DNA of 64,000 nucleotides from Verrucomicrobiota bacterium (GTDB taxonomy: Bacteria > Verrucomicrobiota > Verrucomicrobiia > Limisphaerales > UBA11358): NCBI GenBank assembly GCA_049522015.1, contig JBEKOG010000010.1:21840-85839 (forward strand), written 5' to 3'. The position numbers and the translations under genes are program-made. The notes under the pieces are model-generated. The model made no database searches and was not told where the DNA came from. It was given only the letters and a program-made list of their open reading frames with translations. Shown here in pieces: positions 4,635 to 62,950 of this stretch (the stretch's first letter is position 1; every line of letters begins with the position of its first letter).

Positions 4635-4824
4635 AACATTGAATTAAATGTTTTATCTATGCTACGCTGAAACTCCACCGAAAGCAAGCCCGAGCGGTGG
4701 GAGATTGCGATATTCCGGGCAAATTCCCAAGCCGCTGAAGCCTGACGTAGCGGCGTGTCGGCAGACCGCCGCATTTTTTTGGTTTATTCGAACGGCGGCG
4801 CTCTACCGAGACGCCGCTACGCTT

Positions 4825-30781: not shown

Positions 30782-30845
30782 ATGTGTGATAGATTCACAC
30801 ATCGCGCTTGACAGCCGGGGCGCAATGTGTGAATATTTCACACAT
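30782..30845 (+). promoter_or_regulatory. Twin 21-bp palindromic operators flanking and overlapping a TTGACA promoter upstream of blaI
   Basis: ATGTGTGATAGATTCACACAT (30782-30802) and ATGTGTGAATATTTCACACAT (30825-30845); TTGACA at 30808-30813; GAATAT 17 nt downstream lies inside the second palindrome. Confidence 0.55.
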
Positions 30846-40500: not shown

Positions 40501-40512
40501 AGTCAGAGGCTT

Positions 40513-40576
40513 GGAGTTCCGCCTTCAGGCGGCACGTGGTGCATGAATGTCGCAGACCGCCTGAAGGCGGGACTCC
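40513..40576. repeat. 64-nt long hairpin between the membrane-fusion and ATPase genes
   Basis: GGAGTTCCGCCTTCAGGCGG (40513-40532) pairs with CCGCCTGAAGGCGGGACTCC (40557-40576), 19/20; each arm also contains its own CCGCC-N4-GGCGG mini-hairpin. Confidence 0.6.
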
Positions 40577-40597
40577 AAACAAAAGCCGGTTCACGGT

Positions 40598-58329: not shown

Positions 58330-58494
58330 TCTTTGTCGTCCGTGCGCGAAGTTGCAGGATTGTATTACGGATATGGAAAACAAATCTTTACGCGAATTTC
58401 GCCAATTGTCGCGAATAGTTTGCGTCTGTTTTTTTAATTCGTGCCAATTCGCGCAATTCGTGTAAAAGCTGCTTTCCAGGTGAAGCTTTCGGAG

Positions 58495-59409
58495 ATGCGG
58501 GAACTGCTGGCCACGCGCGGGATTCAACTGACAAAATCCCTCGGCCAGAATTTTCTGCACGATGGTAATCAACTCCGGCGCATCGTCGAGGCGGCGGAAC
58601 TGAAAAAAACGGATAAAGTCCTTGAAATCGGCCCGGGGCTGGGCCCGCTGACGGAATTGTTGCTGGAAAATGCGGGTGTGGTTTTGGCGATCGAGAAAGA
58701 CGCCCGGCTCATGCAAGTTTTACGGGAGCGGTTCGACGTAGCGCAGGCGTCCCGCCTGCACGATTTCAAAAAAAATTTGAAAGCAGGCGGACCGCCCGCG
58801 CTACATTTGCTCCACGCCGATGCGCTGGAGTTTTTGAAAGTGGGACAGGCTTCCAGCCTGTCATCTGAAAATAAATCAGAGACAGGCAGGATGCCTGTCC
58901 CACTTGATTGGCACGATTGGAAGCTCGTGGCGAATTTGCCCTACTCCGTCGCCTCAACCATTTTTGTGGAACTGGCGCAATCACCCAAACGACCGGAGCG
59001 GATGGTCGCGACGTTGCAGCTCGAAGTGGCCCACCGGCTCATGGCCAAAGCTGGCGACGAAGATTACGGGGTGCTGACGCTGCTGCTTCAACTCGACTAC
59101 GAGCTGCGCGAGTGGTTCAAAATACCGGCAAGCTGTTTTTTTCCCGCCCCGGACGTGGATTCGGCCTGCGTGGTCTTGATTCGTCGCGCCCAACCGCTTT
59201 TGCCCGAAAACCAGCACGCGATTTTTGTGAAAATCGTGAAGCGCGCGTTTTCGCAACGACGAAAAAAAATGCTGAAACTTTTAAGGGAAGACTGGCCGCC
59301 GGAAAAATTGGAGCGGGCATTTGAAGAATTGAAAATTCCCCCGCAGGAACGCGCGGAGAAATTGAGTTTGGAACAAATTGTTGCGCTGACAGTAATTTTA
59401 GCGCCGTAG
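58495..59409 (+). CDS. rsmA: 16S rRNA (adenine1518/1519-N6)-dimethyltransferase RsmA/KsgA, with two in-frame insertions
   Basis: KSLGQNFLHD, VLEIGPGLGPLTE, ANLPYSVAS, FFPAPDVDSACV, FSQRRKKM. Start could be GTG 58480. About 30 aa longer than E. coli KsgA between the SAM-binding motif and NLPY. Confidence 0.88.
   Translation: MRELLATRGIQLTKSLGQNFLHDGNQLRRIVEAAELKKTDKVLEIGPGLGPLTELLLENAGVVLAIEKDARLMQVLRERFDVAQASRLHDFKKNLKAGGPPALHLLHADALEFLKVGQASSLSSENKSETGRMPVPLDWHDWKLVANLPYSVASTIFVELAQSPKRPERMVATLQLEVAHRLMAKAGDEDYGVLTLLLQLDYELREWFKIPASCFFPAPDVDSACVVLIRRAQPLLPENQHAIFVKIVKRAFSQRRKKMLKLLREDWPPEKLERAFEELKIPPQERAEKLSLEQIVALTVILAP
58738..58804. repeat. 67-nt palindromic element inside the rsmA ORF
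   Basis: GTAGCGCAGGCGTCCCGCCTGC / GCAGGCGGACCGCCCGCGCTAC arms around the palindromic core TTTCAAAAAAAATTTGAAA. Confidence 0.7.
58840..58903. repeat. 64-nt palindromic element inside the rsmA ORF
   Basis: GTGGGACAGGCTTCCAGCCTGTC / GACAGGCAGGATGCCTGTCCCAC arms around TCTGAAAATAAATCAGA. Confidence 0.7.
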
Positions 59410-60035
59410 GCGTGGCATATTTGTAGAATTTACGCCAAAAAAGATTCCCAAGCTCCGTCAGGAGCGGCATCTTCCGGGCATGGCCAACACCTACACGCAG
59501 ATTTACATCCACGTCGTGTTCGCCGTCGAAGGCCGGCAAAGTCTCATCTCGCCGGAACATAACAATGAACTTCAAAAATACATCACCGGCATTATCTCTG
59601 CGCAAGAGCACAAGCTGATTGTCATCAACAATATGCCGGACCATTTGCATTTGCTGGTCGGCCTGCGGCCGGACACAGCGTTGTCTGATCTGGTACGAGA
59701 CGTAAAAGCCGGCTCATCAAAATTTATCAATGAAAAGCATTGGGTTATGGGACGATTTTCGTGGCAGGGAGGATTCGGCGCATTTTCATATTCGCGCTCA
59801 CAACTCGGCGCGGTGATCCGTTACATCGAGAACCAACAAAAGCATCATGCGAAGAAATCGTTTCGCGATGAATATGTTGAATTGCTCGAAAAATTCTGCG
59901 TGGAATACGACCGGCGCTATATTTTTACGGCTGGCGACGAGTAATTTTGCAACCAGAAGCAGAATATGTCGCCCCTGACGGGGCTAAAAACTGATTGTTG
60001 ATTTGATTTCTACAAATATGCCGCGCCTACGGCGC
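59401..60035 (+). mobile_element. IS200/RAYT-like element: Y1 transposase gene bounded by about 70-bp composite inverted ends
   Basis: Left GCGCCGTAGGCGTGGCATATTTGTAGAA (59401-59428) and right TTCTACAAATATGCCGCGCCTACGGCGC (60008-60035) are 27/28 inverted; each has a subterminal hairpin 22 nt inward (GCTCCGTCAGGAGC 59452-59465; GCCCCTGACGGGGC 59971-59984). Confidence 0.7.
59480..59944 (+). CDS. IS200/IS605-family HUH Y1 transposase (RAYT-like)
   Basis: 154 aa; QIYIHVVFAVEGR, HUH motif DHLHLLV, catalytic Tyr helix VIRYIENQQKHH. Confidence 0.88.
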   Translation: MANTYTQIYIHVVFAVEGRQSLISPEHNNELQKYITGIISAQEHKLIVINNMPDHLHLLVGLRPDTALSDLVRDVKAGSSKFINEKHWVMGRFSWQGGFGAFSYSRSQLGAVIRYIENQQKHHAKKSFRDEYVELLEKFCVEYDRRYIFTAGDE

Positions 60036-60538: not shown

Positions 60539-60608
60539 ACCATCGGCAACAGGTCAGATTGATGAAATATGATGGGGTGGATGAAGGCCAAAATTCCTAA
60601 TTCCTAAA

Positions 60609-60702
60609 TCCGAATGACTAAATAATTCCCAATGACCAATTCAGAATGCCCGGGCGGGGAGAATTATTTTGTCATTCGGGCTTCGTGATTATTTAGTCAT
60701 TA
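60609..60702. repeat. AT-rich GTCATTCG-type inverted and direct repeats upstream of clpP
   Basis: CCGAATGACTAAATAATTC (60610-60628) pairs with GAATTATTTTGTCATTCGG (60661-60679), 18/19; further copies GATTATTTAGTCATT (60688-60702) and TTAGTCATTCGTCATTC. Confidence 0.5.
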
Positions 60703-60835
60703 TGGCTTAGTCATTCGTCATTCAAGGGATATGCGCCTTTCATGGGAACACCCCTGGCCTGGCCGGTCCTAAACCAAAACAACCCATTACCGATCCGTTT
60801 CGCGCCTTTACTTGCGGCAAAAATAGAGTAGTTAT

Positions 60836-61637: not shown

Positions 61638-62924
61638 GTGGCCCGTCCGAACAACATCACCATGTGCAGTTTCTGCGGCAAGTCGCACGCGGAAGTGCGC
61701 AAGCTCATCGCCGGACCGGACGTTTATATTTGCGACAATTGCGTCATCCTTTGCAAAAACGTCCTCGACCGCGAATTCGCGGCCACCGCCAAAAAGCAGC
61801 AGCCCAAGTTTACCGTTCCCAAACCCGCGGTCATCAAACGGCACCTTGACCTTTATTGCATCGGCCAGGAACACGCCAAAAAAACTTTGGCCGTCGCGGT
61901 ACACAACCATTACAAACGCATCCAACCGGAACCGGAGGTGGAAAACGAGACGGCCGGCAAGCCGCCGCGCCCGCACGCCGACGTTGAAATCGAGAAGAGC
62001 AACATTTTGATGGTCGGGCCGACCGGCTCCGGTAAAACGCTGCTGGCCCGGACGCTTGCCAAGATTCTTGACGTGCCGTTCGCCATCGCCGACGCGACGA
62101 CGCTCACGGAGGCCGGGTATGTGGGCGAGGACGTGGAGAATATTATTCTGCGTCTGCTCCAAAACGCCGACTACGACGTGAAGCGCGCCCAGCGCGGCAT
62201 TATTTACATTGACGAGATTGACAAGATCGCGCGCAAGGCGGAAGGCCCGTCTATCACCCGCGATGTTTCGGGCGAAGGCGTGCAGCAGGCGCTCCTGAAA
62301 ATCCTCGAAGGCACGGTCTGCAACGTCCCGCCCCAGGGCGGCCGCAAACATCCGCAGCAGGAATACATCCGCGTGGACACAACGGACATTTTGTTCATTT
62401 GCGGCGGCGCATTCATCGGGCTGGAGAAGGTCATTCACCGGCGGCTGGGCCGGCACGTGATTGGTTTTGGCGCAATTGGGGAGGCGCACAAAAACGCCGG
62501 CACGGCGCGCAATGAAATTCTGCAACACGCCGAACCGGAGGATTTGCTCAATTTCGGCTTCATTCCTGAATTTGTCGGCCGGTTGCCGGTGATGACGACG
62601 CTGGCCGAATTGACCGAAGAGGAGCTGGTGGCAATTCTCACTGAGCCGAAAAACGCGCTGACCAAGCAATATGCCAAACTCATGGCCATGGAAGGCGCGG
62701 AACTGGAATTTACCCCGGACGCACTGCATGAACTGGCGGCGCAGGCGCTGAAAAAGGGCACCGGCGCGCGGGCCTTGCGCGGCTTGATTGAAAAGTTGAT
62801 GCTCGATTTGATGTATGAAGCGCCGGACAACGGCAGCATCATTCACGTCAAAATCACCCGGCCGGTGGTGCTGGGCGAAAGCAAACCCATTGTGCGGCGG
62901 AAGCAGGACCAGGCGGCGGCGTAA
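61638..62924 (+). CDS. clpX: ATP-dependent Clp protease ATP-binding subunit ClpX
   Basis: Zinc-binding CSFCGK...ICDNC, Walker [29 protein letters not shown]; start is GTG 61638 or ATG 61662. Confidence 0.96.
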
Positions 62925-62931
62925 AAAGCAG

Positions 62932-62950
62932 GACAGGCGTCCCGCCTGTC
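62932..62950. repeat. GACAGGCG-TCC-CGCCTGTC hairpin 8 nt after the clpX stop
   Basis: Perfect 8-bp stem with 3-nt loop; same GACAGGC/GCCTGTC core as the rsmA-internal elements; no T-run, so not a canonical intrinsic terminator. Confidence 0.5.

Follow-up and report, generated by a model that had tools for sequence, protein, structure and literature searches.

Probable REP-type palindromic insertions, read in frame, in the rsmA gene of a peat-soil verrucomicrobium

What are two long palindromes doing inside the gene of a conserved rRNA methyltransferase? The question is raised by a 64,000-nt stretch of DNA (hereafter, the window; assembly GCA_049522015.1, contig JBEKOG010000010.1, positions 21,840 to 85,839) from a peat-soil verrucomicrobium of the order Limisphaerales, whose rsmA (ksgA) open reading frame (ORF) stays intact around both palindromes. 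We propose, with a probability of about 85%, that the two are doublets of GTAG-type repetitive extragenic palindromes (REPs), similar to REP doublets forming hairpins (REPINs), which landed in rsmA, were tolerated there and are translated as loops of the protein. The gene and the parts of the two elements are the following:

58480..59409, + strand: rsmA (ksgA) coding sequence, 309 codons plus stop, from the ORF list, Pfam and NCBIfam
58738..58804, + strand: type A GTAG-REP doublet, 67 nt, in-frame translation VAQASRLHDFKKNLKAGGPPAL
58738-58759, + strand: type A left unit, GTAG tag, one C, and the hairpin GCAGGCG-TCC-CGCCTGC at 58743-58759
58764-58782, + strand: type A spacer, AT-rich, holding a small palindrome of its own, TTTCAAAAAAAATTTGAAA
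58783-58804, + strand: type A right unit, degenerate hairpin GCAGGCGGACCGCCCGC-G with a CTAC tag at 58801-58804
58840..58903, + strand: type B GTGG-tagged REP doublet, 64 nt, in-frame translation VGQASSLSSENKSETGRMPVP
58840-58862, + strand: type B left unit, GTGG tag plus GACAGGCT-TCC-AGCCTGTC, hairpin at 58844-58862
58863-58880, + strand: type B spacer, 18 nt
58881-58903, + strand: type B right unit, GACAGGCA-GGA-TGCCTGTC (58881-58899) plus a CCAC tag at 58900

Both elements begin at codon position 1 of rsmA, and each consists of two inverted units that together fold into one longer hairpin. With stems of 7–8 bp and loops of 3 nt (TCC/GGA) around a shared core, CAGGC-N5-GCCTG, the units at 58743-58759, 58844-58862 and 58881-58899, as well as one at 62932-62950 described below, are short GC-rich stem-loops within the limits applied to GTAG-type REPs (stem of 5–13 bp, loop of 2–20 nt). 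Types A and B carry the GTAG tag or a degenerate version of it (GTGG, GYAG), in each case facing outward. The arms at 58738-58804 measure 22 nt and are 86% complementary (DNA fold of -27.3 kcal/mol, z = -8.4), those at 58840-58903 measure 25 nt and are 92% complementary (-27.4 kcal/mol, z = -9.7), and none of 200 shuffled sequences folded as well in either case; as RNA, the type A and type B elements reach -41.1 and -47.5 kcal/mol, respectively. Across type B, its variant B′, type A and the copy at 62932-62950 downstream of clpX, the stem pairs covary (G-C/C-G, A-T/G-C and T-A/C-G/G-C). An initial annotation of the window had reported palindromes at 58738-58804 and 58840-58903 in the intact rsmA ORF, encoding two segments of ~20 residues each; arms, folds and shuffles bear out the palindromes, and translation returns the two peptides as quoted. 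In type A, the right arm, GCAGGCGGACCGCCCGC, is degenerate in this genome (and perfect in the relative L001), and the hairpin loop, given as 2 nt, is in fact one of 3 nt (TCC).

By sequence, the host gene encodes a putative 16S rRNA dimethyladenosine transferase. Its product gives a single full-length Pfam match to RrnaAD (PF00398; 5e-48, residues 17–304), scores 212 bits against NCBIfam TIGR00755 (ksgA), above the curated cut-off of 171, and has the S-adenosylmethionine (SAM)-binding and NLPY motifs, with motifs I–IV kept as EIGPGLG, AIEKD, HADAL and NLPY. The columns of the catalytic motifs are invariant in an alignment of 30 sequences of close orthologues. Among ten orthologues, third codon positions differ at 0.36 as compared to 0.21 for all positions, and this roughly twofold divergence points to purifying selection on the RsmA protein, which is probably produced and would retain its enzymatic activity despite the inserts. 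Words sampled from the gene are recovered at 98–100% in 20 independent peat and wetland metagenomes. Calling rsmA essential, as had been done initially, overstates the case, since ksgA is dispensable in model bacteria, E. coli among them.

Did the extra segments arrive by insertion? We compared the protein with its 120 nearest relatives (74–100% identical, drawn from 5.8 billion proteins, with sources that name Limisphaerales or Verrucomicrobiota) and, at the DNA level, 13 orthologue loci. Type A occupies what we refer to as site 1, between RERF and LxLLHADA, and type B occupies site 2, between ALEFLK and DWxxWKLVANLPY; the peptides spanning the junctions of host and insert are VGQASSLSSENK, MPVPLDWHDWK, FDVAQASR and AGGPPALHLLHADALEFLK. 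At site 2, about 42 of the 120 orthologues have an 'empty' form of 3–5 residues (RESH, REPR or similar), and one has a single hairpin in another reading frame (DRQDAC). Among orthologues that are 75–95% identical, site 1 is filled by six or more alternative inserts or is left nearly bare (P0005), and nearly all combinations of site 1 and site 2 states exist. In the DNA, the site 1 inserts are distinct palindromes in one loop, and the states of this site comprise:

Site 1, all states: type A; type B; type C; type D; a run of AATCCGC heptamers; two other inserts; empty
Site 1, type C: 80-nt palindrome, SEGRVPRAPN...ELAPPK
Site 1, type D: palindrome, ESRLQP...GGTPN, carried by L008, P0009, P0011, P0014 and P0076

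Types A and B share exact junctions at this site (TTCAAY/GTRG...CYAC/AYTTGCTCC, slashes marking the borders), and element B is identical or near-identical in the orthologues L005–L009. Between two conserved blocks, the protein has 59 residues here and 29 in KsgA of B. subtilis (PDB 6ifs), so that the excess of residues claimed initially is real, with B. subtilis rather than E. coli KsgA as the partner in the comparison. As the insert-free alleles match the standard length of KsgA, the empty form is likely ancestral. The extra residues are missing from close relatives devoid of the repeats, as in P0115/L003 and P0091/L001 for site 2 and P0005/L005 for site 1, and the insertion reading therefore stands. 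A neighbour-joining tree of the insert-free columns, too shallow to order gains and losses, shows no more than this mixture of site states.

An alternative is that the segments are ancient, lineage-specific RsmA loops that are self-complementary by chance and owe nothing to a mobile element. In 76 of the 120 orthologues, site 2 holds the peptide of type B or of its variant B′, a recognizably homologous insert compatible with one old event and vertical inheritance. This account nevertheless fits poorly with six or more unrelated sequences at site 1 among orthologues of 75–95% identity, with insert-free alleles of standard length, with the recurrence of the same 19–23-nt units and their tags in unrelated genes, in intergenic DNA and in several phyla, and with a number of copies far above what chance would give; we consider it very improbable.

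Two further observations were made at these sites. The heptamer AATCCGC is present inside rsmA site 1 once in L005 (locus at 136-1011) and four times in tandem in L003 (1379-2227) and in the rsmA genes of L009 and L253; all copy numbers observed preserve the frame, and others would shift it, as in phase variation. In addition, the RsmA protein P0118 lacks 33 residues, including strand β3 and motif III, and its junction falls inside two type B copies such that the left arm of site 1 is joined to the right arm of site 2, which reflects either recombination between two in-gene repeats or an assembly artefact.

Returning to REP doublets as the preferred reading, we asked where else the hairpins occur. 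The window holds three copies of GACAGGC-N5-GCCTGTC, at 58844, 58881 and 62932, where chance would give 0.25. The third of these is the free intergenic copy after clpX that had been noticed at the outset, and a type D doublet is intergenic as well:

62928..62950, + strand: single REP unit of the same superfamily, intergenic, degenerate tag GCAG plus GACAGGCG-TCC-CGCCTGTC
40511..40578, no strand assigned: type D palindromic doublet, intergenic, TTGGAGTTCCGCCTTCAGGCGG ... CCGCCTGAAGGCGGGACTCCAA, with GGAGTTCCGCCTTCAGGCGG...

The clpX-associated unit starts 4 nt, and its hairpin 8 nt, past the clpX stop codon (62922-62924), and its stem has the outer pairs of type B, with an inner pair and a loop as in type A. 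The type D copy lies between a gene for an ABC ATPase and an HlyD-like gene, and the same family is in frame in rsmA of L008. A palindrome at 4746-4821, bounded by GTAG...CTAC (CGTAGCGGCGTGTCGGCAGACCGCCGC / GCGGCGCTCTACCGAGACGCCGCTACG) and situated just downstream of hisF, represents a further family of REP doublets.

Beyond the window, the type B unit, GGACAGGCWTCCWGCCTGTC, occurs in at least 120 stretches of GTDB contigs sampled at one genome per species, the hosts among the matches listed being Verrucomicrobiota, Planctomycetota, Kiritimatiellota, 'delta proteobacteria', Acidobacteriota and Chloroflexaceae. The type A unit was retrieved from at least 120 metagenome stretches, with rsmA in none of the 120 listed loci. 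In most of 34 type B doublets taken from a range of genomes, GTAG/GTGG...CTAC/CCAC tags lie outside the hairpins, and the spacers range from 8 to 52 nt. One related genome, SPRUCE 686, has units in rsmA, in the isoleucyl-tRNA synthetase (IleRS) gene and in a Glx-tRNA synthetase gene. Of 170 type A hairpins in metagenome loci, 66 fall within open stretches of 300 codons or more, several of which were confirmed as real genes: Pfam-supported hosts of in-frame type A units are UvrA, GcvP, HrpB, ClpB, HypF and GlnE. Likewise confirmed by Pfam as hosts are a Glu/Gln-tRNA synthetase in the genome of P0091, whose catalytic domain contains an in-frame type B doublet, and DnaE at another locus, with a single in-frame unit. 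Five frames of the type A unit are in use in other genes (VAQASRL, SAGVPPA, RRDACAT, AGGTPAL and QAGRLRY), which argues against selection for a particular peptide.

As judged by translation, the IleRS gene, 7 kb from rsmA, contains in-frame doublets both in L001 (two) and in L009 (three, unlike those of L001):

L001, 17481-20465: IleRS inserts, the type A family among them, VAQASGLCADAKNTDQRSVPQ and LAQASRLPAENKNAGETPVL
L009, 18236-20920: IleRS inserts VGDDVRSL...SLVTSTPT and AAGVSPADQNNGSSGKMPEAR, and a third insert near the N-terminus

The same two or three positions in IleRS are filled by different families across relatives, which makes this a second multi-family hotspot gene, and one more copy follows just past the stop codon. 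The earlier suggestion that a mobile repeat colonised a coding region is upheld by the insertion polymorphism of rsmA together with the wide repetition of the hairpin families, which recur between genes and, read in frame, within other conserved genes, in both public genomes and metagenomes. The elements would be non-autonomous repeat DNA from a superfamily spread over Verrucomicrobiota, Planctomycetota and other phyla. Another observation concerns a metagenome-assembled genome of Pirellulales, in which L085 (5997-7007) has seven type B hairpins with a period of ~168 nt in long open stretches; they form a tandem array that includes the REP unit and may encode a repeat protein.

How does this compare with known systems? 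The GTAG and CGTC superfamilies of REPs were defined by Di Nocera, De Gregorio & Rocco (2013, BMC Genomics 14:522; PMC3733652), who found GTAG REPs in the PVC superphylum and, in Opitutus terrae, ~70 intragenic cases (families GTAG-17 to -20), over half of which are dimers coding for 20–30 residues and some of which hit the same ORF twice. Their hosts in O. terrae include UvrA, HrpA and HypF, with tRNA synthetases in other species, and in most GTAG-20 units of O. terrae the GTAG is mutated to GTGG (PMC3733652). A mainly extragenic location is consequently not a strict feature of REPs, and both rsmA copies are intragenic. The elements described here are alike in phylum, in GC-rich stem-loops, in GTAG/GTGG tags, in intragenic dimers and in UvrA and HypF as hosts; the GTAG-19 peptides GTGVPPV, TGGTPVP and GRDARAT represent the same frames as TGVPPV, TGGTPV and RRDACAT here, and back-translation suggests that the GTAG-19 loop and inner stem are near-identical to ours. 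They differ in belonging to the order Limisphaerales and in their stems, GACAGGC and GCAGGCG; neither these stems nor rsmA/ksgA are present in the lists and supplements of PMC3733652. Presence/absence polymorphism among orthologues, several families per site and the low divergence of one element lie beyond the scope of that work.

In-frame palindromic inserts are likewise described for Rickettsia (Ogata et al. 2000, 2002; as summarized in PMC3733652), where the genes hit by Rickettsia palindromic elements (RPEs) are considered likely still functional, essential ones included, and where RPE-4 and RPE-6 are classed with the intragenic REPs of the CGTC type. The rsmA elements resemble RPEs in having inserted in frame into an ORF that stays open and conserved. 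They are distinct from RPE-1 to RPE-8 in measuring 64–67 nt and in being GTAG/GTGG-tagged, RPEs being either of the CGTC class or longer (RPE-1), and they stem from free-living peat bacteria rather than an obligate intracellular alphaproteobacterium. The long RPEs span ~100–150 bp, and to our knowledge no dedicated transposase is associated with RPEs. With the REPINs of Pseudomonas and E. coli (Nunvar 2010; Bertels & Rainey 2011; both as cited in PMC3733652), our elements share the pair of inverted REP units folded as one long hairpin, the GTAG tag and arms that are kept next to a variable spacer; copies are dispersed in both cases, here as seen across public genomes and metagenomes. Classical REPINs, however, are nearly all extragenic and accompany a single-copy REP-associated tyrosine transposase (RAYT) flanked by the same REPs, while the elements in rsmA are intragenic. 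Bacterial MITEs (miniature transposable elements with inverted repeats) such as Nezha, ERIC and Correia/NEMIS are comparable as small non-autonomous palindromes in or near genes that fold in mRNA, but they have terminal inverted repeats derived from an insertion sequence (IS) as well as target-site duplications, neither of which is evident at the rsmA junctions. Of the label REP/MITE-like used initially, the MITE part is therefore less apt, and REP/REPIN-like is the better description. Translated intragenic REPs being already known in this phylum and in Rickettsia, the case is not new in kind; what it adds is the polymorphism among orthologues, a pile-up of multiple families at one loop, the same in IleRS, and an element that diverges slowly.

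Are the elements kept in the mRNA? In three metatranscriptomes, contigs extend across element B with no gap (58831-59062, 58835-58935 and 58807-58936), in answer to the initial concern that RNA data might reveal excision of the hairpins. One of the spanning contigs has type D at site 1 and thus comes from a relative. Many others match the hairpin arms alone and then diverge, as other copies of the hairpin family would. The sole joint that skips 70 nt has 16 other letters instead, coding for RRESH, and represents the empty allele of a relative; we rejected it as a processing product. Since RNA contigs may hold carried-over DNA and drop rare forms, they show retention of element B and are no proof against processing.

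These data bear on a further alternative, namely that the palindromes are removed on the way to the protein, in the manner of an intron or intein, or that rsmA is an inactivated pseudogene. Very stable hairpins are unusual in a coding region, ksgA is dispensable elsewhere, and P0118 lacks the residues between its two type B copies, all of which would suit such a scenario. Yet the RNA contigs of three runs read through element B with no RNA-specific joint, the ORF is intact with invariant catalytic motifs and the third-position excess of purifying selection, and segments of 21–22 residues are far too short for an intein. We regard removal or inactivation as hardly credible.

Under the preferred reading of tolerated REP doublets, the mRNA would retain the elements, which would then be translated as loops of 21–22 residues. 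What could have allowed them to persist? The two landing places in rsmA would be just before β3 and just before β4 of the Rossmann domain, as the inserts are immediately N-terminal to the strands β3 (LHLLH, followed by the motif III aspartate) and β4 (KLVA, followed by NLPY). Class I methyltransferases bind cofactor and substrate at the C-terminal ends of these strands, and the inserts should hence project from the opposite face; motif positions together with class I methyltransferase topology suggest that they are solvent-exposed loops. Persistence would follow from a net length change that preserves the frame, from hairpin units that are free of stop codons in all six frames (the whole elements being open in three of six frames for type A and four of six for type B), and from two positions in loop regions that face away from the SAM/adenine pocket.

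Is tolerance all there is to it? Among six orthologues, no other 21-codon window of rsmA has diverged as little as element B at site 2, which differs by 0.089 at third positions (median 0.284, minimum 0.140 across 224 windows) and by 0.046 over all positions (median 0.142). With ten orthologues, element B, at 0.198 against 0.360, still ranks in the lowest 1–2% (2 of 244 windows are as low). The conservation of the site 2 peptide, by contrast, is merely average (0.846 vs 0.873 in 76 proteins, 82% of windows being more conserved), and any constraint would accordingly act on the nucleic acid. In the same 76 proteins, the type B arms are better conserved than the spacer. For type A at site 1, no conservation beyond that of the gene is seen (8 of 63 vs 120 of 762 differences between the window and L001). 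The slow divergence of element B may reflect selection, conversion from other copies or replacement of arms.

Selection on the palindromes as nucleic-acid structures, rather than mere tolerance, would make them mRNA hairpins that tune rsmA translation, co-translational folding or decay, DNA sites for a RAYT, gyrase or another REP-binding protein, or slots for the exchange of GTAG-bounded cassettes. In support of a selected structure, element B has the lowest divergence of the rsmA windows, third positions included, its arms are better conserved than its spacer, types A and B use identical junctions at site 1 and the hairpins are highly stable as RNA (-41 and -47.5 kcal/mol). L253 shows two pair-preserving double changes in its left arm, and single changes in L008 and L009 yield G-T, which would still pair as G-U in RNA. 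However, the L253 arm equals B′, which exists elsewhere as a separate subfamily and speaks for a replaced arm, not for covariation in steps; 6–10 DNA sequences make a small sample, and gene conversion by the many other copies could also produce conserved arms. Moreover, type A diverges like its host gene and its right arm is decaying here, many orthologues do without either insert, and the site 2 peptide is average at the protein level. A selected structure is therefore a possible, albeit unlikely, explanation. More speculative still, and in our view rather improbable, is the extension that REP doublets in rsmA, IleRS and other genes are under nucleotide-level selection and that the loops are fixed, GTAG-bounded slots whose cassettes are swapped by a Y1 transposase. 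If true, REP/RAYT systems in these Verrucomicrobia would find long-lived refuges in conserved housekeeping genes or, alternatively, the hairpins would have been recruited to control the translation of such genes.

By what means would tolerated REP doublets move? REPs of Proteobacteria are thought to be moved by Y1 transposases of the RAYT type acting on single-stranded hairpins (PMC3733652). By analogy, the rsmA elements may have been mobilised in trans by a RAYT-type Y1 transposase that acts on single-stranded hairpins and cuts at the GTAG tag. The window contains a Y1 transposase unit directly at the end of rsmA:

59406..60030, + strand: Y1 (HUH) transposase unit, gene at 59480-59944
59406-59428, + strand: left end of the unit, GTAG plus GCGTGGCATATTTGTAGAA, the GTAG overlapping the rsmA stop codon
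60008-60030, + strand: right end of the unit, TTCTACAAATATGCCGCGC plus CTAC, an inverted copy of the left end
Within 59406-60030: inner inverted hairpins GCTCCGTCAGGAGC and GCCCCTGACGGGGC

The unit lies between rsmA and a NUDIX gene that, in relatives without the unit, comes directly after rsmA. Its protein matches Pfam Y1_Tnp (9e-25) and scores 66 bits against the NCBIfam IS200 model, above the cut-off of 55, and 36 bits against REP_Tyr_transpos, below the cut-off of 80, and thus does not pass the RAYT model. The repeats of the unit are unlike those of types A and B (terminal GCGYGGCATATTTGTAGAA, inner GCYCCGTCAGGRGC hairpins), and the unit is treated here as a neighbour of the rsmA inserts. 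Pieces resembling its terminal repeat are abundant in contigs of peat metatranscriptomes. Searching ~250 loci with the Y1 protein of the window (tblastn) and with a three-sequence hidden Markov model (8261 ORFs of at least 90 codons) yielded three known genes only, namely those of the window, L017 and L207. The last of these, at L207 1380-2110, has GTTCCCACGG-N-CCGTGGGCTAC units on either side, which are REPs that carry the GTAG tag and have CCCACGG as their stem, and is a clear REP-flanked transposase unit from the same kind of community, with another REP family.

Several points weigh against translated REP doublets. No RAYT or Y1 gene flanked by type A or type B hairpins was found in ~1.5 Mb of loci, a small sample, the Y1 genes of the window, L017 and L207 having other flanking repeats. 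Copies in this genome were counted within 64 kb alone, amounting to three B-type and two A-type units. At site 2, the step from empty to filled is no clean insertion, as ~10–12 nt are replaced with a net gain of 54 nt, and target-site duplications are absent from the junctions TTCAAC/GTAG...CTAC/ATTTGC and TTGAAA/GTGG...CCAC/TTGATT, which makes the chemistry of insertion unreadable from them. As for a target motif, positions -3 to -1 before the GTAG tag show merely a weak A-rich bias, too little to suggest targeting. Translation of the inserts into protein is a prediction from the reading frame. Finally, an AlphaFold2 model built on the 30-sequence alignment has a mean pLDDT of 48 and a pTM of 0.50, too poor for a fold search or for placing the loops, and the surface location is thus deduced from motifs and topology; the secondary-structure string of the model, with both inserts in coil between H75-85, H112-124 and E147-152, agrees weakly.

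If the elements are indeed tolerated REP doublets, rsmA offers a natural test of the amount of structured DNA of foreign origin that a conserved enzyme can accommodate, since alleles with zero, one and two inserts circulate in related peat bacteria. For annotation, 20-residue 'lineage-specific loops' in proteins of Verrucomicrobiota and Planctomycetota would often be translated REP units, recognizable by tell-tale peptides such as GQASSLS, DRQDACP, TGRMPVP, AQASRL, AGGTPAL, RRDACAT and SAGVPPA. Element B, whose divergence at synonymous sites is below that of the catalytic core, represents a testable case for distinguishing selection on REPINs from conversion and from re-insertion.

Two additional repeats of the window were noted. 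At 30782-30845, the palindrome ATGTGTGA-N5-TCACACAT occurs twice, 43 nt from start to start, and the pair looks like operator sites for a dimeric regulator. At 60592-60722, AT-rich nested inverted repeats with arms of 31–35 nt lie between the NUDIX gene and clpP.

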